Below, one piece after another: positions 1-6,826 of a stretch of DNA of 6,826 bases. Source of the stretch: a virus (Duplodnaviria; Heunggongvirae; Uroviricota; Caudoviricetes). The translations under genes were made by a program, and so were the position numbers. The notes under the pieces were generated by a model. That model did no database searches. It was not told the DNA's origin and saw nothing but the letters and a program-made list of their open reading frames with translations. Every line of letters starts with the position of its first letter. The stretch's first letter is position 1. The DNA lies in IMG/VR virus record IMGVR_UViG_2693429599_000001, positions 1-6,826 of that record; one strand, written 5' to 3'.

Positions 1-1535
1 TTACGCAGTGCGCCTTCCTGCTGGTCAAACAGGTCAGTCCCCACCGCCTCATAAGCGGACTGAAACTCTTTAAAGTCACCGCCGAGGTTGTCCTGCATGA
101 TATTTACCAGCTCGGCGGTCTTCCCGTCTGAGGCTTTAAACGCAGCGGTCAGTTTGTCCAGCTTTCCGGTTGAGGCGGCAGTCATCAGCACGGCGGCGGC
201 TGAGCTGGCCTCCTCCCCGAAAATAGTTTTCATGTATTCAGCCTGCTGGGCAGTACCGAGCCGGTTTTTCTCAAAACTGGCCTGCATTTCTTTCAGAATG
301 GTAAATACTGGTCGGGTATTCCCCTTACTGTCTGAGGTTTTTACGCCAAGCTCTTTGAGTGCATCCCATGCTTTTCCCGTTGGTGCCTGCAGGCGACTTA
401 ACACGGCACGGCTTCCCGTCCCCGCCATTGAGCCTGTGATTTTTGCATCATGCAGCGCCCCGACCATTGCGGCGGTTTCTTCAATGCTGACACCGGCATT
501 TTTTGCCACAGGTGCGGCATAGGTCAGCGCATCGCTCATGCCGTCAAAATCGGCGGCGGTTTTGTTCATCGTCATGGAGAGAACATCCCCGATATGAGCG
601 ACCTTATCGTTTGAAAGCTGAAAGGCGGATTTCATCCCCATCAACAGGGCGGCGTTTTCTTCCATCGTGCGACGGTTCGCCAGCGCCATATTCAGCGTGA
701 CCGGCGTTGCCGCCTGAATGGCATCAACATCCCCACCGGCTTTTGCAATAATAATCTGCGCACCGGCTGCATCATCTGCCGAGGCTGCGGTATTGTCGCC
801 GAGCTGACGCGCCTGCTTGCGTAGTGCAGCCATTTCGGCGGAGTCTTTTGCCACTCCGAGCACAGCCTGTAATTCTGAGTTTTTCTGCGCAAACTCATAA
901 CCGGGCATCAGCAGCTTAACTCCGGCCATCGTTCCCGCCGCCGCAATCCCCACACCGGCAGCGCCCACCGAGGCCATATTTCCGGCCAGTTCCTTTCCGG
1001 CCTGATAACGCTGTTTTACTGCGTTAAGTTTTGCCTGTTGCGCACTGACACGCGCCAGTGCGTCGCGCTGACGATTAAGCTGTGCGGTGGTTTCACTGAT
1101 ACGGTTTTTCAGCCCCTGCTCATCATGTGCAAGATTGCGGGTATTAATTCCCACAGCGGCCAGTTCCCGCTGCTGGCGTTTAACGGAATCCGTCAGGCGG
1201 TTATATTTCGCCTGTAAGTCCTCCGCCGCTCGCTTTGCTGATTCCAGCACTTTCGCCTGAGCACGGGTCGGACGTTCGGTGTTTTTAAACTGTGTGGCAA
1301 GGGCTTCGGCCTCCTGCCGTGCCTTTTCAAGTGCATGACCAGTCACGGCAAGCTGTGCACTGGTCTTGCGAAATCCCTCAATACGGGAGGCGTGACCGTT
1401 CAGCTCGCGCAGTGATTTTTGTGTTTCCCGGATATCCCCCGACAGCGACTTACTCGCTGTGCGGATGGATTTAAACGGGCGGGATGCCTGGTCAACAGCC
1501 CTGAGCAATACCTGTAATTTTACATTGTTACTCAT
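1..1535 (-). CDS. T: Tail tape measure protein, P2 gpT-like; N-terminal 511 codons, gene runs off the window at position 1
   Basis: Minus-strand ATG at 1535-1533 translates MSNNVKLQVLLRAVDQASRPFKS; the frame stays open to the window edge (the tta at 1-3 is out of frame). Its ATG overlaps the E' stop (AATGAGTAA), and it sits downstream of E/E' as in P2. Coiled-coil-like A/Q/K/R-rich sequence. Confidence 0.85.
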   Translation of the reverse strand, partial: MSNNVKLQVLLRAVDQASRPFKSIRTASKSLSGDIRETQKSLRELNGHASRIEGFRKTSAQLAVTGHALEKARQEAEALATQFKNTERPTRAQAKVLESAKRAAEDLQAKYNRLTDSVKRQQRELAAVGINTRNLAHDEQGLKNRISETTAQLNRQRDALARVSAQQAKLNAVKQRYQAGKELAGNMASVGAAGVGIAAAGTMAGVKLLMPGYEFAQKNSELQAVLGVAKDSAEMAALRKQARQLGDNTAASADDAAGAQIIIAKAGGDVDAIQAATPVTLNMALANRRTMEENAALLMGMKSAFQLSNDKVAHIGDVLSMTMNKTAADFDGMSDALTYAAPVAKNAGVSIEETAAMVGALHDAKITGSMAGTGSRAVLSRLQAPTGKAWDALKELGVKTSDSKGNTRPVFTILKEMQASFEKNRLGTAQQAEYMKTIFGEEASSAAAVLMTAASTGKLDKLTAAFKASDGKTAELVNIMQDNLGGDFKEFQSAYEAVGTDLFDQQEGALR

Positions 1536-1955
1536 TCGTGTTTCCGCTTCGCCGGAGCGCCTTTTCGCGCCATGTGATAAGTTCGGTCAGGCTCATGGGA
1601 TACAGTTCTGATGGCGGCCAGTGAAATATCACTGCCACATCCGCCATCAGGTCATCGACCGAGAGATTTTTCGGAAACGTCACTGCACCGAGTTCGGCGA
1701 CAAAAAACCGACCACCTTACCGGCCAGCGCCACAAGGTCAGGCAGTTCCAGCGCGGCGACTTCCTGCTCGGTCAGCATCGGTGCCGTCATGCGCGGCAGC
1801 ACCTTAATCAGTGCATCGACTTCGGAGTTTGCAACCGCAGCCAGACTGACACCGCGTAGCGTCCCGGCATTGGGTTTCATCAGCGTGACCTGTTCGATAA
1901 CCTGCTCACCACGTTTGACCGGATTGTCCAGGGTAATGACATTTTCTTTGTTCAT
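1528..1955 (-). CDS. E+E': Tail assembly chaperone gpE+E', product of a programmed -1 frameshift (142 aa predicted)
   Basis: After the slip at GGT TTT TTG, the -1 frame stays open for 57 codons (VAELGAVTFPKNLSVDDLMADVAVIFHWPPSELYPMSLTELITWREKALRRSGNTNE) to a TAA at 1530-1528. That gives 85 + 57 = 142 aa, the length I recall for P2 E+E'. Confidence 0.75.
1680..1955 (-). CDS. E: Tail assembly chaperone gpE (91 aa)
   Basis: ORF-track protein MNKENVITLDNPVKRGEQVIEQ...GFLSPNSVQ; its position between tube and tape measure, its length and the slippery site near the 3' end match P2 E. Confidence 0.9.
   Translation of the reverse strand: MNKENVITLDNPVKRGEQVIEQVTLMKPNAGTLRGVSLAAVANSEVDALIKVLPRMTAPMLTEQEVAALELPDLVALAGKVVGFLSPNSVQ
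1701..1707 (-). other. Slippery heptamer T_TTT_TTG for the E/E' -1 ribosomal frameshift
   Basis: Plus strand caaaaaa at 1701-1707 is TTTTTTG on the minus strand, in the 0-frame context GGT TTT TTG at codons 83-85 of E. The P2 and lambda G/GT-type chaperone frameshift sites are of this kind. Confidence 0.75.
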
Positions 1956-2011
1956 GGTTTTCTCACTTCTGAATCAGGGTTAACCGGCCAGCCAGGCTGA
2001 CCGGATGAAAA

Positions 2012-2530
2012 TCACAGGCCGATATTGCGGCGGTGTTGCTCCAGCCGGTCGACGCCGTTCACCTTCTCAATCATGTTGATGGTGTCAATTTCGACCAGCT
2101 CCTTACCGTCCATCGTCAGCCGGAAATAGGTGCAGACCACGGAGATTTTCGACTCAGTGTCTTCTCCCTGTTTACCCTCGCCGGTGTCGATTTCTTTCTG
2201 ACGTCCACGCATGACCACTTCGACGGCCACCGTTTCGCCGGTATCATCGCGCTGGTAAGAGCCTGCAAAACGAATCGGCACGGCATCCACGCCGGTTGCG
2301 GCGTAAAGCTCCCAGATAACCGAATCCGGGAAGCCCCCGAGCGACCACTCCATTGACAGCGCATCGTCATCAAGGCCGAGGTCTACCGGTGCGCTGCCGT
2401 TCATCCCCGCACCGCGATAGTTTTCGAGCTTACGGGTCAGTTTTGGCAGCGTGACGGACTTTGCAACGCCCTGATAGCTGTAGCCGTTCAGAAAGACGTT
2501 CATTAACTTGAGTTTGCGTGGCATTGCCAT
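2012..2530 (-). CDS. FII: Tail tube protein, P2 gpFII-like (172 aa)
   Basis: ORF-track protein MAMPRKLKLMNVFLNGYSYQGVAKSVTLPKLTRKLENYRGAG...; GGAG ribosome-binding site 8 nt upstream of the ATG; lies immediately downstream of FI, and its size matches P2 FII. Confidence 0.9.
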   Translation of the reverse strand: MAMPRKLKLMNVFLNGYSYQGVAKSVTLPKLTRKLENYRGAGMNGSAPVDLGLDDDALSMEWSLGGFPDSVIWELYAATGVDAVPIRFAGSYQRDDTGETVAVEVVMRGRQKEIDTGEGKQGEDTESKISVVCTYFRLTMDGKELVEIDTINMIEKVNGVDRLEQHRRNIGL

Positions 2531-2542
2531 CGGTCAGGCTCC

Positions 2543-3733
2543 TTAATTGCTGTTAACCGAGGTGACCAGATTTGCCAGGTATTTATCGGTAATACGCTGG
2601 CGCAGGGTCAGGTTTTCGAGAGGAGGCACCGGTGTATAGTCGTAGTCGATATACAGTTTTCCGGCCTTGAGGGTTTCCGCATCGTTGGATTCTTCGCTGA
2701 ACCAGCAGGTCGCATCCACGATATAGCCGTTTGTTTTCAGCTCACGGAATTTGGCATTGATGCCGTCAACGATGTCGCGAATCAGCGTTGCGGTGATGGG
2801 CTTGTCCACCGCCCACATGTGCGCCTCAGCCATCGTGTCGGCCAGCACCTGCGCGGTGCGGGTGTAGTTTTCAAAGAGGAACAGCGGGTCATCAGAGCAG
2901 GTACGGTTACCCCAGAAGCGGAAACCATCACGGCGAATCAGCGTTGTGACGCCTGACTCATTCAGCAGGTCAGCATCGGTGCCGGACTCCTGCAAATCCC
3001 AGAATACAGAGGCACTGATGCCGGTAACACCGTTTACCCCGACATTGGACAGCGTTTTATGCCAGCCCTGCTCCTGGTCGATTTTAGCGCGCAGACCCAG
3101 CGCACGGGCGGTGGCATACGCGGTGGCGGTGGTGCTGCTGACCGTATCCCATGCGAGGAAATCCGGCCAGATGACCATCAGCTCACGCTGGCTGAAATTC
3201 TGGCGGTAGGCTTTCACCTCGGAAATGGTTTTACAGCCCCATGCGCTGATATACCCGAAAGCGCGCAGCTTCTGACAGACTGATGCCAGTGCAACAGCCA
3301 CCTCTTTGGTGTCCAGTCCCGGCACGCCGAGAATACGCGGTTTAACACCGGTTACCGACTCCGCCGCCAGCAGGGCTTTCAGTCCGGTATACTGACCGTT
3401 TTCGTCAGTGGTGCCGATGATATTGGAAACGGTCTGCGCGAGTTTCGTTTCTTCGTCGTCGCCGGTGCCGTCTTCAACACGCACGACAACGGTAACCGGT
3501 TTTGACTGGTCAGCGATGGCCTGCAACGATGCCGCCAGCGTGCCTTTTTTACCGGCCTTTGCAATTGCGCTCTGCACATTGGTAATCAGCACCGGTTTAT
3601 TGAGGGGGAAGGTTTCCGCATCCGCATCGCTGGCCGTACAGACCATGCCGACAATGGCAGTGGATACGGTGGAAATGACGCGGGTGCCGTCGTTAATCTC
3701 CAGCACCTGCACGCCGTGATGATAGTCACTCAT
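2543..3733 (-). CDS. FI: Contractile tail sheath protein, P2 gpFI-like (396 aa)
   Basis: ORF-track protein MSDYHHGVQVLEINDGTRVISTVSTAIVGMVCTASDADAETFPLNKPVLITNVQSAIAKAGKKGTLAAS...; a GGAG ribosome-binding site precedes the ATG; length and N-terminus match P2 FI as I recall it. Confidence 0.93.
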   Translation of the reverse strand: MSDYHHGVQVLEINDGTRVISTVSTAIVGMVCTASDADAETFPLNKPVLITNVQSAIAKAGKKGTLAASLQAIADQSKPVTVVVRVEDGTGDDEETKLAQTVSNIIGTTDENGQYTGLKALLAAESVTGVKPRILGVPGLDTKEVAVALASVCQKLRAFGYISAWGCKTISEVKAYRQNFSQRELMVIWPDFLAWDTVSSTTATAYATARALGLRAKIDQEQGWHKTLSNVGVNGVTGISASVFWDLQESGTDADLLNESGVTTLIRRDGFRFWGNRTCSDDPLFLFENYTRTAQVLADTMAEAHMWAVDKPITATLIRDIVDGINAKFRELKTNGYIVDATCWFSEESNDAETLKAGKLYIDYDYTPVPPLENLTLRQRITDKYLANLVTSVNSN

Positions 3734-3792
3734 CCGTTTAACTCCGTGGTTAATGGGTGAGTGATATTTTCAGTTGTGCCGGAGATGTCAGG

Positions 3793-4386
3793 CTATTTGT
3801 CCCGGTTGGCTAAGGGATGACACAATTTATTCTTTGTCGCTGATGAGGGGAATTTTTTATAGAGCGTGGACAGGCCAATATCAAAAATCAGCGCCACGCG
3901 TTGACGTGATTCACCCGCAGCCAGCAACCGTCCTGCCTGTTCCCACTCACTCGCGGTGAGCTTCGGACGTCTGCCACCAATACGACCTTTGGCTCTGGCC
4001 GCTTCCAGTCCGGCGCGAGTCCGCTCAACAATGAGTTCTCGCTCCATTTCAGCCAGGGCACCCATCACATGAAAGAAAAAACGCCCCATCGGCGTGCTGG
4101 TATCAATGGCATCCGTCAGGCTGCGAAAATTAATGCCGCGTTCGCGCAGCTCCTCAACCAGAATGACCAGATGCCGCATACTACGCCCCAGCCGGTCCAG
4201 CTTCCAGACTACCAGTGTATCCCCCTCCGATAATGTCCTGAGCAGTTTTTTCAGCCCCGGCCTGTCGGACTTCGTGCCGCTGATTTTATCCTCAAAAATC
4301 AGCTCACATCCTGCGCACTCCAGCGCGTTACGCTGCAATTCCGTGTTCTGGTCATTTGTTGACACGCGTACATAGCCAATAAGCAT
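3793..4386 (-). CDS. Serine DNA invertase, Hin/Gin/Cin/Pin family (resolvase-type catalytic domain plus C-terminal HTH)
   Basis: Translation MLIGYVRVSTNDQNTELQRNALECAGCELIFEDKISGTKSDRPGLKKLLRTL...VVWKLDRLGRSMRHL...GINFRSLTDAIDTSTPMGRFFFHVMGALAEMERELIVERTRAGLEAARAKGRIGGRRPKLT has the active-site Ser in VRVSTNDQ. I prefer the ATG at 4386-4384 (GGGGGA ribosome-binding site 5 nt upstream) to the ORF-track start at 4392. Confidence 0.9.
   Translation of the reverse strand: MLIGYVRVSTNDQNTELQRNALECAGCELIFEDKISGTKSDRPGLKKLLRTLSEGDTLVVWKLDRLGRSMRHLVILVEELRERGINFRSLTDAIDTSTPMGRFFFHVMGALAEMERELIVERTRAGLEAARAKGRIGGRRPKLTASEWEQAGRLLAAGESRQRVALIFDIGLSTLYKKFPSSATKNKLCHPLANRDK
4279..4303 (-). promoter_or_regulatory. 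Candidate recombinational enhancer element (Fis-site-like palindrome) inside the invertase 5' coding region
   Basis: Imperfect palindrome gctgatttt-N7-aaaatcagc at about +83 to +107 of the invertase gene; a second A/T-tract element ctgagcagttttttcag lies at 4238-4254, about 45 bp away. Hin, Gin and Cin enhancers lie in the 5' part of the invertase gene with two Fis sites about 48 bp apart. Position-based inference only. Confidence 0.25.
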
Positions 4387-4413
4387 GAGCATCCCCCTGA
4401 ATAAAAACCGGAG

Positions 4414-4803
4414 ATGATGCCAGTTGCCCGTTATCTCTGCATTTTCATAAACGTTGGTTTGGGGGAATTGGCTCTGGCTGGCGCAACAACCGGCGCTATG
4501 TTGGTGAATGGGTATGTAGCAATTCCATTAATTATTTCTGGCGTTCGGAGACCACTTATTATCCAGTGGGGAGTGGGGCAGTTTGGGGGAAGTCTGGGGG
4601 ATGATGCGGGATATTTAAACAATTTCCCTTTCGCTTTTCCGTCGGCGTGCTACGTGATGGTTGCCAGCCACGTGGGGCATACACCTTCGGGTGCCGGAAT
4701 ACTATCTGCTTCCGCAATCACAAAAAGCGGCTTTCGTGGTTTTTCCAGCGTAGTGACTGCCGCAAATCCTGTATCGGGCTGTTATGTTGCTATAGGAGGG
4801 TGA
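4414..4803 (+). CDS. Tail-fibre C-terminal (tip) cassette, invertase-proximal duplicate; probably silent unless joined to a fibre 5' part by recombination
   Basis: From 4454 it encodes the same 116 C-terminal residues as the fibre ORF ending at 5771 (LGELALAGATTGAMLVNGYVAIPLIISGVRRPLIIQWGVGQFGG...SGCYVAIGG). The ATG at 4414 directly abuts a GGAG (no spacer) and lies in the invertase upstream region, so independent translation is doubtful. Confidence 0.5.
   Translation: MMPVARYLCIFINVGLGELALAGATTGAMLVNGYVAIPLIISGVRRPLIIQWGVGQFGGSLGDDAGYLNNFPFAFPSACYVMVASHVGHTPSGAGILSASAITKSGFRGFSSVVTAANPVSGCYVAIGG
4442..4467 (+). other. Putative invertase crossover site A (26 bp, 12-2-12): ttttcataaacg tt ggtttgggggaa
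   Basis: Imperfect dyad with AAAC-type half-sites resembling hix/gix/cix/pix sites; lies 55 bp upstream of the invertase start; the 429-bp repeat begins at its central TT. Confidence 0.6.
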
Positions 4804-4882
4804 TGTGTTTTTTAGTCCATCTTTAAATATTTTTGTGAATCCTGCGCTTAAGGATGACTACATCAATGTAAATTCATGGCCA
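4454..4882 (+). repeat. Direct repeat copy 1 (429 bp, identical to 5422-5850)
   Basis: Base-by-base comparison of the two blocks; the identical antisense ORFs 4431-4622 and 5381-5590 in the ORF track reflect the same repeat. Confidence 0.95.
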
Positions 4883-4885
4883 TGA
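4805..4885 (+). pseudogene. Truncated tail-fibre assembly gene fragment (first 26 codons of the tfa at 5773, then a stop at the repeat boundary)
   Basis: GTG at 4805 with an AGGAGG ribosome-binding site, identical to the 5773 start; the frame hits TGA at 4883-4885, exactly where the repeat ends. Confidence 0.55.
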
Positions 4886-4901
4886 AGGCGTACTCATTGC
4901 G

Positions 4902-5771
4902 GTGGCGAACTGCCCGGAAACGTACAAACCGCAGTTGCAGGAAGGCAGTGGTCGTACCCAGACTATCCGCATGATTCTGGTTGTCACGAATACCGAAGCC
5001 ATCACGCTGAAAATCGACCCGTCGGTGGTACTGGCGACCCGTAAATACGTGGATGATAAAGTCCTGGAATTAAAGCTGTATGTGGATGACCAGATGAGAA
5101 ACCACATTGCCGCACAGGATCCTCATACCCAGTATGCACAGAAACATAATCCGACATTTACCGGAGAACCAAAAGCGCCGACGCCTGCCGCAGGAAATAA
5201 CACCACGCGGATTGCGACCACTGCGTTTGTACAGGCCGCTATTACCGCTCTGATTAACGGTGCCCCTGACACGCTGGACACACTGAAAGAAATTGCCGCA
5301 GCTATCAACAATGACCCGAAATTCAGTACCACCATTAACAATGCGCTGGCAGGTAAACAACCGCTGGACAATACGCTGACTCATTTGAGTGGAAAGGATG
5401 TAGCTGGTCTTCTCACATACCTTGGTTTGGGGGAATTGGCTCTGGCTGGCGCAACAACCGGCGCTATGTTGGTGAATGGGTATGTAGCAATTCCATTAAT
5501 TATTTCTGGCGTTCGGAGACCACTTATTATCCAGTGGGGAGTGGGGCAGTTTGGGGGAAGTCTGGGGGATGATGCGGGATATTTAAACAATTTCCCTTTC
5601 GCTTTTCCGTCGGCGTGCTACGTGATGGTTGCCAGCCACGTGGGGCATACACCTTCGGGTGCCGGAATACTATCTGCTTCCGCAATCACAAAAAGCGGCT
5701 TTCGTGGTTTTTCCAGCGTAGTGACTGCCGCAAATCCTGTATCGGGCTGTTATGTTGCTATAGGAGGGTGA
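4902..5771 (+). CDS. Tail fibre protein, 5'-truncated copy or alternative cassette (shaft region plus C-terminal tip); first ~100 codons of a full fibre gene absent
   Basis: Frame is open from 4872 with no ATG; first GTG at 4902. Encodes VLIAVANCPETYKPQLQEGSGRTQTIRMILVV...KYVDDKV...HNPTFTGEPKAPTPAAGNNTTRIATTAFVQAAITALINGAPDTLDTLKEIAAAINNDPKFSTTINNALAGKQP, which from memory resembles P2 gpH around residues 100-160 and the conserved enterobacterial side-tail-fibre motif. Crossover site B lies at codon ~170. Confidence 0.75.
   Translation: MANCPETYKPQLQEGSGRTQTIRMILVVTNTEAITLKIDPSVVLATRKYVDDKVLELKLYVDDQMRNHIAAQDPHTQYAQKHNPTFTGEPKAPTPAAGNNTTRIATTAFVQAAITALINGAPDTLDTLKEIAAAINNDPKFSTTINNALAGKQPLDNTLTHLSGKDVAGLLTYLGLGELALAGATTGAMLVNGYVAIPLIISGVRRPLIIQWGVGQFGGSLGDDAGYLNNFPFAFPSACYVMVASHVGHTPSGAGILSASAITKSGFRGFSSVVTAANPVSGCYVAIGG
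5410..5435 (+). other. Putative invertase crossover site B (26 bp): ttctcacatacc tt ggtttgggggaa
   Basis: Right half-site and core identical to site A, left half identical at 8 of 12 positions; same orientation as site A; lies inside the fibre ORF (encodes ...LLTYLGLGEL...). Confidence 0.6.
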
Positions 5772-5850
5772 TGTGTTTTTTAGTCCATCTTTAAATATTT
5801 TTGTGAATCCTGCGCTTAAGGATGACTACATCAATGTAAATTCATGGCCA
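5422..5850 (+). repeat. Direct repeat copy 2 (429 bp, identical to 4454-4882)
   Basis: Base-by-base comparison; starts at the central TT of site B and ends 78 bp into the tfa at 5773. Confidence 0.95.
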
Positions 5851-6207
5851 GATGATGCTGTTGAAGTTGATGAGCAGGTGTATATTGAGTTTTCCGGATT
5901 ACCGCCGAAAGGAAAAATCCGTATCGCTGGGGAAAATGGTTTTCCTGCATGGTCTGAAATTCCACCACCAACGCATGAGGAACAGATTGCCGCAGCCGAA
6001 TTGAAAAAACAGCAATTGATTAATCAGTCCAACGAATATATGAATACCAAGCAATGGCCTGGTAAAGCGGCTATTGGTCGTCTGAAAGGTGAGGAACTGG
6101 CGCAATATAATTTGTGGCTGGATTATCTGGACGCACTGGAACTGGTTGATACCTCCAGTGCTCCAGATATTGAATGGCCTACGCCTCCGGCAGTTCAGGC
6201 CAGATGA
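5773..6207 (+). CDS. Tail fibre assembly protein (Tfa, P2 gpG or Mu U-like chaperone) for the plus-strand fibre cassette
   Basis: GTG start 5 nt after AGGAGG and 1 nt after the fibre stop; C-terminus ...WLDYLDALELVDTSSAPDIEWPTPP shares the conserved Tfa C-terminal motif with the 6179-6772 protein. Confidence 0.85.
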   Translation: MFFSPSLNIFVNPALKDDYINVNSWPDDAVEVDEQVYIEFSGLPPKGKIRIAGENGFPAWSEIPPPTHEEQIAAAELKKQQLINQSNEYMNTKQWPGKAAIGRLKGEELAQYNLWLDYLDALELVDTSSAPDIEWPTPPAVQAR

Positions 6208-6772
6208 CATCCGGCGCGGTGCTCGTATCTGTTGCCGTCACCGCGTCAATGTAATCAAGCACGGCGTTAAGCCGGGTGGTTTCTGCCTGCGTCAGCTTCC
6301 GCCCGGCCTGTAATTTCAGCTGAATCAGGCTGATGGAAGCCATTGCAGCATCAATCAGTGACTGGCGCTGTGCTTCTGCCGCTTCTACTGCGGCACCGTG
6401 TTGTGCCTCAGTATCTGTCACCCATTTCTCACCATCCCATTTATCATATGGCGTTAACGGTGAAAGCGTGACATAACCGTTTTTGATGGCACCGATATAA
6501 TCCACTGTAACAGCTGCGCCATTTTCGATTGAGTAAACAGTCTCATTGCGATGGTCTTCTTCATGGCTCCATCCCTTACCTGTAAATACTGCCACTCTTC
6601 CCGGAATGTTTTCGCCAGGGTCAATACCAGTGGAACAGGCGGGCATACTTACGCCAGTATTAATATATTCATCAGACCAGCCCGTATACTCAGATGTTTC
6701 AGCATCATAATAAAAACAACGCATATCGCCCGGCACTGTAGCCAGCCCATTTTCATCAAAAACAGGTTTCAT
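6179..6772 (-). CDS. Tail fibre assembly protein (Tfa) partnered with the minus-strand fibre gene upstream
   Basis: ORF-track protein MKPVFDENGLATVPGDMRCFYYDAETSEY...LDYIDAVTATDTSTAPDVIWPELPEA; GAGGG ribosome-binding site upstream; converges on the plus-strand tfa with a 29-bp 3' overlap (6179-6207). Confidence 0.85.
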   Translation of the reverse strand: MKPVFDENGLATVPGDMRCFYYDAETSEYTGWSDEYINTGVSMPACSTGIDPGENIPGRVAVFTGKGWSHEEDHRNETVYSIENGAAVTVDYIGAIKNGYVTLSPLTPYDKWDGEKWVTDTEAQHGAAVEAAEAQRQSLIDAAMASISLIQLKLQAGRKLTQAETTRLNAVLDYIDAVTATDTSTAPDVIWPELPEA

Positions 6773-6826
6773 TATTTAGCCCTCACCAGAAAGTTAAATG
6801 CAATGTTACGTGGTCTGACGGCAATA
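6772..6826 (-). CDS. Extreme 3' end of the upstream minus-strand gene, presumably the expressed tail fibre (P2 H equivalent); partial, frame unresolved
   Basis: Two minus-strand frames are open to the window edge: one ends with TGA at 6785-6783 (...LPSDHVTLHLTFW), the other with TAA at 6774-6772 overlapping the tfa ATG as TAATG (...NFLVRAK). Gene order H then G is expected from P2. Confidence 0.3.
   Translation of the reverse strand, partial: IAVRPRNIAFNFLVRAK

Follow-up and report, generated by a model that had tools for sequence, protein, structure and literature searches.

A probable 968-bp tandem duplication with subsequent site-specific inversion in the tail-fibre switch of a P2-like prophage of Escherichia coli

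Tail-fibre switches operated by DNA invertases of the Gin family, namely those of Mu, P1 and e14, are textbook systems, and such switches are on record for P2-like prophages too. Spontaneous tandem duplications of enterobacteria are equally well known: they arise at short homologies or without any homology, contain one novel joint and are unstable owing to recombination between the copies. The Min system of plasmid p15B, associated with Sandmeier, Iida and Arber, reportedly combines a Gin-family invertase with six crossover sites in fibre genes and many diverged cassettes. Wild-type invertases of the Gin/Hin family are not known to delete the DNA between directly repeated sites. These wild-type enzymes act on inverted sites in an enhancer-dependent complex (PMC3798978). 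In a P2-like locus of the enteropathogenic strain EPEC E2348/69, three inverted repeats and four coexisting genomic variants were described (Goldberg et al. 2014, PMC4272514), and tail-fibre genes rank among the targets in which programmed inversions are most enriched (PMC9881135).

The stretch of DNA analysed in the present work (the window) has a length of 6826 nt and is the entire contig CYFI01000057.1 of the draft E. coli assembly GCA_001283785.1. The record contains no Ns and, judged by its small contigs, the source assembly appears to be a short-read draft. The minus strand of the window carries the tail module of a P2-like prophage, and an invertible tail-fibre region is located to the right of the invertase gene (Table 1). 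A Gp53-like_C domain was found in the first copy of the repeat, and the contig ends 54 nt into the fibre cassette designated HvA. The fibre and chaperone proteins received no informative names from NCBIfam.

Table 1. Features of the 6826-nt window. Letters A, B, X and Y are used in the text.
Feature	Position	Strand	Remarks
Tape measure	to 1535	-	Contig starts inside the gene
gpE / E'	1528-1955	-	
Tube	2012-2530	-	
Sheath	2543-3733	-	
Gin-type serine DNA invertase, 197 aa	3793..4386	-	Pfam Resolvase + HTH_7; alternative ATG at 4392 gives 199 aa
Recombination site X, gix/hix-like, 26 bp, core TT	4442..4467	+	TTTTCATAAACG TT GGTTTGGGGGAA
Repeat copy 1 (A1): fibre C-terminal cassette (stop ends at 4803) and tfa codons 1-26 (4805-4882)	4454..4882	+	
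14-bp perfect palindrome across the novel joint 4882/4883	4873..4886	.	tfa side ttcatggcca, fibre side tgaa
Segment B, duplicated fibre interior: third base of codon 95 to codon 271 of the intact protein	4883..5409	+	Silent copy
Recombination site Y, oriented as X, encodes LLTYLGLGE in the fibre ORF	5410..5435	+	TTCTCACATACC TT GGTTTGGGGGAA
Repeat copy 2 (A2), runs on into the complete tfa gene	5422..5850	+	
5'-truncated fibre ORF according to the source record, 289 aa	4902..5771	+	GTG start, CTZ01891.1
Complete tail-fibre assembly chaperone gene tfaB, cognate to cassette A	5773..6207	+	Pfam Caudo_TAP, E = 2.8e-35
Second chaperone gene tfaA, convergent with tfaB, cognate to the other fibre end	6179..6772	-	Pfam Caudo_TAP
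Last 18 fibre codons of the currently expressed form (HvA cassette)	6772..6826	-	Collinear with the 3' end of the 427-aa fibre ORF of L005

Several additional features of the window were recorded. The 3' ends of tfaB and tfaA overlap by 29 bp (6179-6207), and this overlap is kept in four related loci (L001, L002, L003 and L005, see below). On the minus strand at 1701-1707, between the ORFs at 1680-1955(-) and 1528-1683(-), GGT TTT TTG is read in the gpE frame, whose protein product includes ...VVGFLSPNSVQ. As checked by hand, T TTT TTG is a slippery heptamer from which slippage by -1 would give access to the reading frame of the Phage_P2_GpE ORF further downstream; this fits what we take to be the programmed E/E' tail-chaperone frameshift of P2. 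In phage records such as Phi06_2974 B and vB_EcoM-720R4, similarity to the window starts at 5842, approximately at tfaB codon 23, that is, 8 nt ahead of position 5850, which is the equivalent of the duplication breakpoint. Comparison with these records suggests a natural mosaic boundary in tfaB at ~5842, at which an N-terminus specific to the cassette would give way to a gene body found widely.

The layout of the locus agrees with that of the annotated Mu record (S, U, U', S'v, gin). As with the G segment and Gin of Mu, and also the C segment and Cin of P1 and the P segment and PinE of e14, a Gin-type invertase gene adjoins the invertible segment. As in Mu, the segment provides two alternative C-termini of the fibre with a separate chaperone for each, in convergent arrangement, and the 26-bp sites are likewise placed inside the fibre ORF. 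Unlike Mu, the host of the switch is a P2-like prophage, the invertase gene is inserted between the fibre module and the sheath gene, the variable parts of the fibre are unrelated to those of Mu, and there is an extra 968-bp duplication with a predicted third site. The EPEC E2348/69 locus belongs to the same kind of prophage and has the same mechanism, and four states would be reachable in the locus under study as well if the third site exists as predicted. However, the EPEC locus offers three different C-termini, whereas the extra cassette of the window is an identical copy (429/429 nt) that adds no new specificity; with a multi-cassette shufflon defined by more than two different C-termini, the locus falls outside that class. 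It also differs from p15B Min in having three sites, of which two are seen in the window, and no diverged extra cassette. The likeness to spontaneous tandem duplications consists in one novel joint, a head-to-tail unit and a 1-nt microhomology; unlike ordinary tandem duplications, the unit spans a site-specific recombination site. The locus is a known kind of P2-like fibre switch with what is probably a private tandem duplication, i.e., an ordinary structural variant and not a new element.

The two copies of the repeat (4454-4882 and 5422-5850) are identical at 429/429 positions and part at 4882/4883 and 5850/5851, exactly where the initial annotation had placed their divergence. The 12 nt before the copies (4442-4453 and 5410-5421) differ at four positions because they represent the left halves of two different recombination sites. 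The tfa frame opened by GTG at 4805 contains 26 codons (VFFSPSLNIFVNPALKDDYINVNSWP) and is then closed by the TGA at 4883-4885, while the sequence continues as fibre in a different frame (IHGHEGVLIAVANCPETYK from 4872; IHGHEGVLIAVAN...). The earlier description of a tfa fragment joined to a 5'-truncated fibre gene was correct: the fibre part begins within codon 95, which corresponds to position 96 of the 150 positions of PF12571, an N-terminal tail-collar domain. Since this breakpoint lies inside PF12571, the copy is a headless fragment cut within the fold and not a modular unit. A breakpoint within a folded domain is as expected of a random illegitimate event rather than of modular exchange.

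Comparison of the joint with the two native sequences (a slash marks the breakpoint) gave the following picture. Native tfaB reads ...aaattcatggcca/gatgatgctg, the native fibre gene reads ...gggctttatgatga/tgaaggcgtactc, and the window reads ...aaattcatggcca/tgaaggcgtactc. The parental sequences have one base (A) in common at the joint. The proposal of an illegitimate or microhomology-mediated join was borne out in the sense that the join is illegitimate and a single base is common to both sides. In addition, a GATGATG heptamer is situated beside both parental breakpoints (5851-5857 of the window, and upstream of segment B in the L005 fibre gene), within runs of ATG trinucleotides. Simple slippage mediated by this heptamer was considered and rejected: it would give ggccaGATGATGaagg, which is 5 nt longer, whereas GATGA is missing from the actual joint, which is displaced by 5 nt from the register of the heptamer and runs straight into TGA. 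A join inside GATGATG would fuse tfaB codons 1-28 in frame to the fibre. The heptamer is either a coincidence or the trace of a two-step history with a second loss of 5 nt.

According to phmmer, residues 1-182 of the invertase match the PDB "DNA-invertase" chains 3uj3/4m6f (E = 1.2e-94), which we take to be Gin of phage Mu. The nucleotide identity of its gene to Mu gin was 68% overall and 70-83% over the first 120 nt; Fis sites in this part, where a Fis-dependent recombinational enhancer would be located, were too degenerate to call. The predicted invertase is intact and Gin-like. Both recombination sites, X (4442-4467) and Y (5410-5435), agree with the consensus TTNTCNNAAACCNNGGTTTNNGANAA at 16 of the 18 specified positions, the same score as that of the two genuine Mu gix sites used as a positive control for the scan. 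Besides the sites at 4442 and 5410, nothing in the window reached 12/18 in the Hin/Gin consensus scan, in agreement with the earlier statement that no Hin-type site is present at the joint and that the joint was not made by the invertase. X is identical to the invertase-adjacent site of L005, the complete-genome relative described below, and the left half of Y is identical to the site inside the intact L005 fibre gene. In L005 the two sites are inverted relative to each other; in the window X and Y are in direct orientation. Because deletion between direct repeats is not expected of these enzymes, X and Y should not recombine with each other. The duplication could then be removed only by homologous recombination between the two 429-bp copies, which would restore a sequence like that of L006.

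The same scan bears on the reading in which the invertase made the joint at a secondary (pseudo) site. An active-looking Gin-type invertase is encoded some 500 bp away. Nevertheless, the joint scores below 12/18, against 16/18 for X, Y and the Mu sites, and inspection by eye found no AAACC..GGTTT motif in either parental breakpoint sequence. Moreover, exchange by an invertase conserves sequence and inverts it and does not produce a 968-bp duplication. We consider this explanation extremely improbable.

All parts of the arrangement were found in undisrupted form in related E. coli prophages. An independent E. coli assembly (L006; GCA_053799275.1, contig ACBOLC010000116.1, 1-3145) is 100% identical to positions 2049-4882 and 5422-6161 of the window, i.e., it equals the window minus 968 bp. 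L006 is either the direct ancestor type or a revertant formed by recombination between the 429-bp copies. A complete genome (L005) contains the same prophage with ~99% identity, in the order invertase-X-A-tfaB-tfaA(-)-HvA(-)-site Z(inverted)-B(-)-rest of the fibre gene(-)-tail protein I. In L005, segment B is on the opposite strand, within an intact 427-aa fibre ORF, and is 99.8% identical to B of the window. A second prophage as donor was considered and is not needed, as L005 and L006 place all parts in one prophage.

The other state of the switch was found in L001, L003 and L007, where B-site-A-tfaB is contiguous; the intact fibre gene with the chaperone gene downstream encodes 391 aa in L001 and 465 aa in L003. 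L002, L005 and L006 are in the opposite inversion state to these three. The presence of both orientations among near-identical prophages argues, as comparative evidence only, that inversion occurs naturally. Residues 1-271 of the L005 (427 aa) and L001 (391 aa) fibres are almost identical, and the proteins are completely different beyond. The common part ends with ...LLTYLGLGE in L005 and ...LLAYLGLGE in L001, which is encoded by the site itself, and each variable end has its own Caudo_TAP gene downstream. The site being inside the fibre ORF, inversion swaps the C-terminus together with the cognate chaperone.

Some of these relatives have features of their own. L001 (NZ_CP067342.1; 3389-3857, 9069-9641) contains truncated virion-morphogenesis, baseplate V and sheath genes, and in L002 (NZ_CP147130.1; 7411-8694) the fibre gene is in two pseudogene pieces with a 360-bp gap. 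As L001 and L002, the closest complete-genome relatives, carry such decayed copies, the prophage lineage is often defective. Position 1 of L007 (GCA_047769835.1, contig ABXUFX010000086.1) corresponds to window position 4908, 25 nt into segment B, which is a hint that the part of the fibre gene preceding the contig start is a repeat common to several prophages of that genome. In E. coli genomes with a match to the window, the matching places number up to 13, with a median of 2.

Based on these comparisons, the joint is probably the single novel junction of a 968-bp tandem duplication that arose in the invertible fibre region and was later inverted by the resident invertase. The process would start from a fibre gene oriented constant part-B-site-A-tfaB, in which 968 bp (B-site-A, from fibre codon 95 to tfaB codon 26) would be duplicated head to tail. 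The duplication may have been an illegitimate, RecA-independent event, by replication slippage or by unequal sister exchange. As the duplicated unit would include the 26-bp site, a locus with three sites would result. The Gin-type invertase would then flip everything between the invertase-proximal site and the outermost fibre site, and the outcome would be invertase-X-A-B-Y-A-tfaB-tfaA(-)-HvA(-)-Z-B(-)-constant part. Copy 1 of A would thereby land beside the invertase gene, and B-site-A-tfaB would become a silent 5'-truncated fibre cassette on the plus strand. Because the unit spans a crossover site, the later inversion disguises the tandem order and separates the first B from the first A. That the joint would belong to a tandem unit spanning a crossover site, and would owe its odd setting near the invertase gene to a later, normal inversion, goes beyond the earlier interpretation. 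We infer how the duplication came about at the molecular level, in which order the events took place and how the locus continues past the contig end.

The proposed path was reproduced in silico on L005 by an inversion, a 968-bp tandem duplication and an inversion. The reconstructed sequence aligned with positions 1-6826 of the window as one collinear block with 99.05% identity, including the exact 24-mer across the joint. At the level of sequence, this demonstrates that a path of duplication and inversions would be sufficient for the structure of the window. What characterizes a tandem duplication was also found: B-site-A is contiguous in L001, L003 and L007, there is one novel joint, and the homology at the joint is one base.

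An identical product would be expected from a replicative double template switch (MMBIR/FoSTeS-like) in the present orientation, without an invertase step. Replication would pass from tfaB codon 26 to the inverted fibre codon 95, copy B up to the site, and return through the ~20 nt common to the sites to the start of cassette A. The 1-nt microhomology at the first joint is typical of such events, and the CCTTGGTTTGGG-type homology that the sites have in common could guide the return switch. The two routes are indistinguishable from the sequence alone. However, this one depends on two rare switches, including one to the opposite strand, against one rare event plus a routine inversion, and both inversion states exist among near-identical prophages. 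For these reasons a double template switch seems quite improbable to us.

The initial annotation had also raised the possibility of a chimeric assembly. In this case a two-site locus, probably in mixed states, would have been assembled, scaffolded or represented by chimeric reads in such a way that the contig falsely links tfaB codon 26 with the interior of the fibre gene. The window makes up an entire draft contig of 6826 bp; cultures are expected to be mixed with respect to an invertible region (PMC4272514); the joint is absent elsewhere in the collections searched; and the draft contig of L007 breaks only 25 nt from the same fibre position. On the other hand, with a one-base overlap, a k-mer graph or overlap merge should be unable to form the joint from reads that do not contain it. 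Mixed inversion states give alternative joins at the 26-bp sites and not at 4882/4883, the structure matches one duplication and one normal inversion base for base, and the record is free of Ns. An artefact is in our opinion unlikely.

Under the preferred reading, duplication followed by inversion, site Z is predicted at ~7218-7243 (window numbering), about 390-400 nt past the contig end, and the inverted B at ~7244-7770. The position of the predicted third site and inverted B past the end of a short draft contig counts against the model, as do the 5-nt mismatch in register with GATGATG and the coincidence behind the palindrome (see below). In addition, the full genome would contain, besides a 429-bp direct repeat, an inverted repeat of ~540 bp; that a presumed short-read assembly threaded repeats of this size comes as some surprise. 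The contig breaks at 1 and 6826 are likely caused by other prophages of the same genome that share the tape-measure and fibre sequences.

The joint was then sought in sequence collections. None of the 5426 complete E. coli genomes contained a sequence spanning the joint when a 120-mer query was used, and all matches began at 4882. With the same query, the joint was likewise spanned by no record of the phage or plasmid collections, and the exact 24-mer across the joint had no match in GTDB species representatives, IMG/VR or JGI metagenomes. An old, fixed arrangement, which would appear as the same junction in related genomes, thus found no example in the E. coli, phage, plasmid, GTDB, IMG/VR and JGI sets. 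The truncated fibre ORF is encoded in the gene index by one contig only, that of the window itself; a 287-aa cluster mate came from another assembly, in which a contig end truncates a normal fibre gene. As far as the collections searched are concerned, the joint appears private to the contig of the window. Since the copies are identical at 429/429 positions, the event was recent.

The perfect palindrome ttcatggccatgaa (TTCATGGCCATGAA) was found exactly at 4873-4886, as reported in the initial annotation, and it is indeed missing in copy 2, which reads ttcatggcca/gatg (ttcatggccagatg). It is the sole perfect palindrome with arms of at least 6 nt in the 6826 nt. At least one 14-bp perfect palindrome was present in 38% of dinucleotide shuffles of the same size and composition (mean 0.48), and its occurrence somewhere in such a sequence is not remarkable. 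The palindrome arises because the native TGGCCA of tfaB has ttca in front of it, and the first bases of the fibre side, tgaa, happen to be complementary to this. It therefore consists of the tfa-native TGGCCA and four further matching bases, with a chance of ~1 in 256 by our own calculation; under the duplication model this coincidence is left to chance. No stable hairpin was predicted at the palindrome, as its single-stranded folding was no better than that of shuffles (z = 0.17). To the question, raised in the initial annotation, of whether the fibre gene naturally contains ggccatgaaggcg, the answer was no: the native gene reads ctttatgatga/tgaaggcg. The palindrome was found in neither parental sequence, i.e., neither in native tfaB nor in the native fibre gene, and is therefore a product and not a cause of the joint. 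A role as a structural element was rejected in view of the lack of a stable hairpin and the ordinary frequency across the window. The palindrome is a by-product without mechanistic meaning.

These data also bear on the suggested fold-back, in which the palindrome would be the centre of an inverted duplication and the right flank would run into a second, inverted invertase gene and tail sheath gene. The palindrome does sit on the joint, and positions 4882-6824 are collinear with L001 in its reverse-complement state, where invertase(+) and sheath(+) come next. However, the symmetry stops at 14 bp (7+7 nt), its centre (4879/4880) is off the joint (4882/4883), and, as stated above, the palindrome is missing in both parents and forms no stable hairpin. 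B-site-A is in the native head-to-tail order, and on both sides the succession fibre segment-site-fibre end is native. A fold-back would also delete the baseplate genes and the fibre N-terminus and would need a further novel joint. This part of the earlier interpretation is very improbable.

If the third site is present as predicted, four states would be reachable by inversion according to symbolic enumeration of the duplicated locus. The present state would express the HvA fibre with tfaA. In two states an A-type fibre would be followed by the complete tfaB gene. In one state an A-type fibre would have only the tfaB stub downstream, together with tfaA in sense orientation; this state would presumably be defective, with the wrong chaperone paired to the fibre.

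It is possible, although we hold it to be doubtful, that the contig has caught a multi-site fibre shufflon at birth, with a third functional site and a spare cassette gained in one step. If so, the invertase would shuffle four arrangements without being able to delete any part, and the wrong-chaperone state would be a built-in cost. Divergence or replacement of the spare cassette would then lead to loci with three specificities, as in EPEC. The locus is also a worked example of how an invertase may disguise a simple tandem duplication as a chaperone stub joined to a headless fibre gene, which would be useful for annotating prophage fibre regions or for judging misassemblies. It also suggests a plausible and testable route from a two-site fibre switch to a multi-site shufflon.
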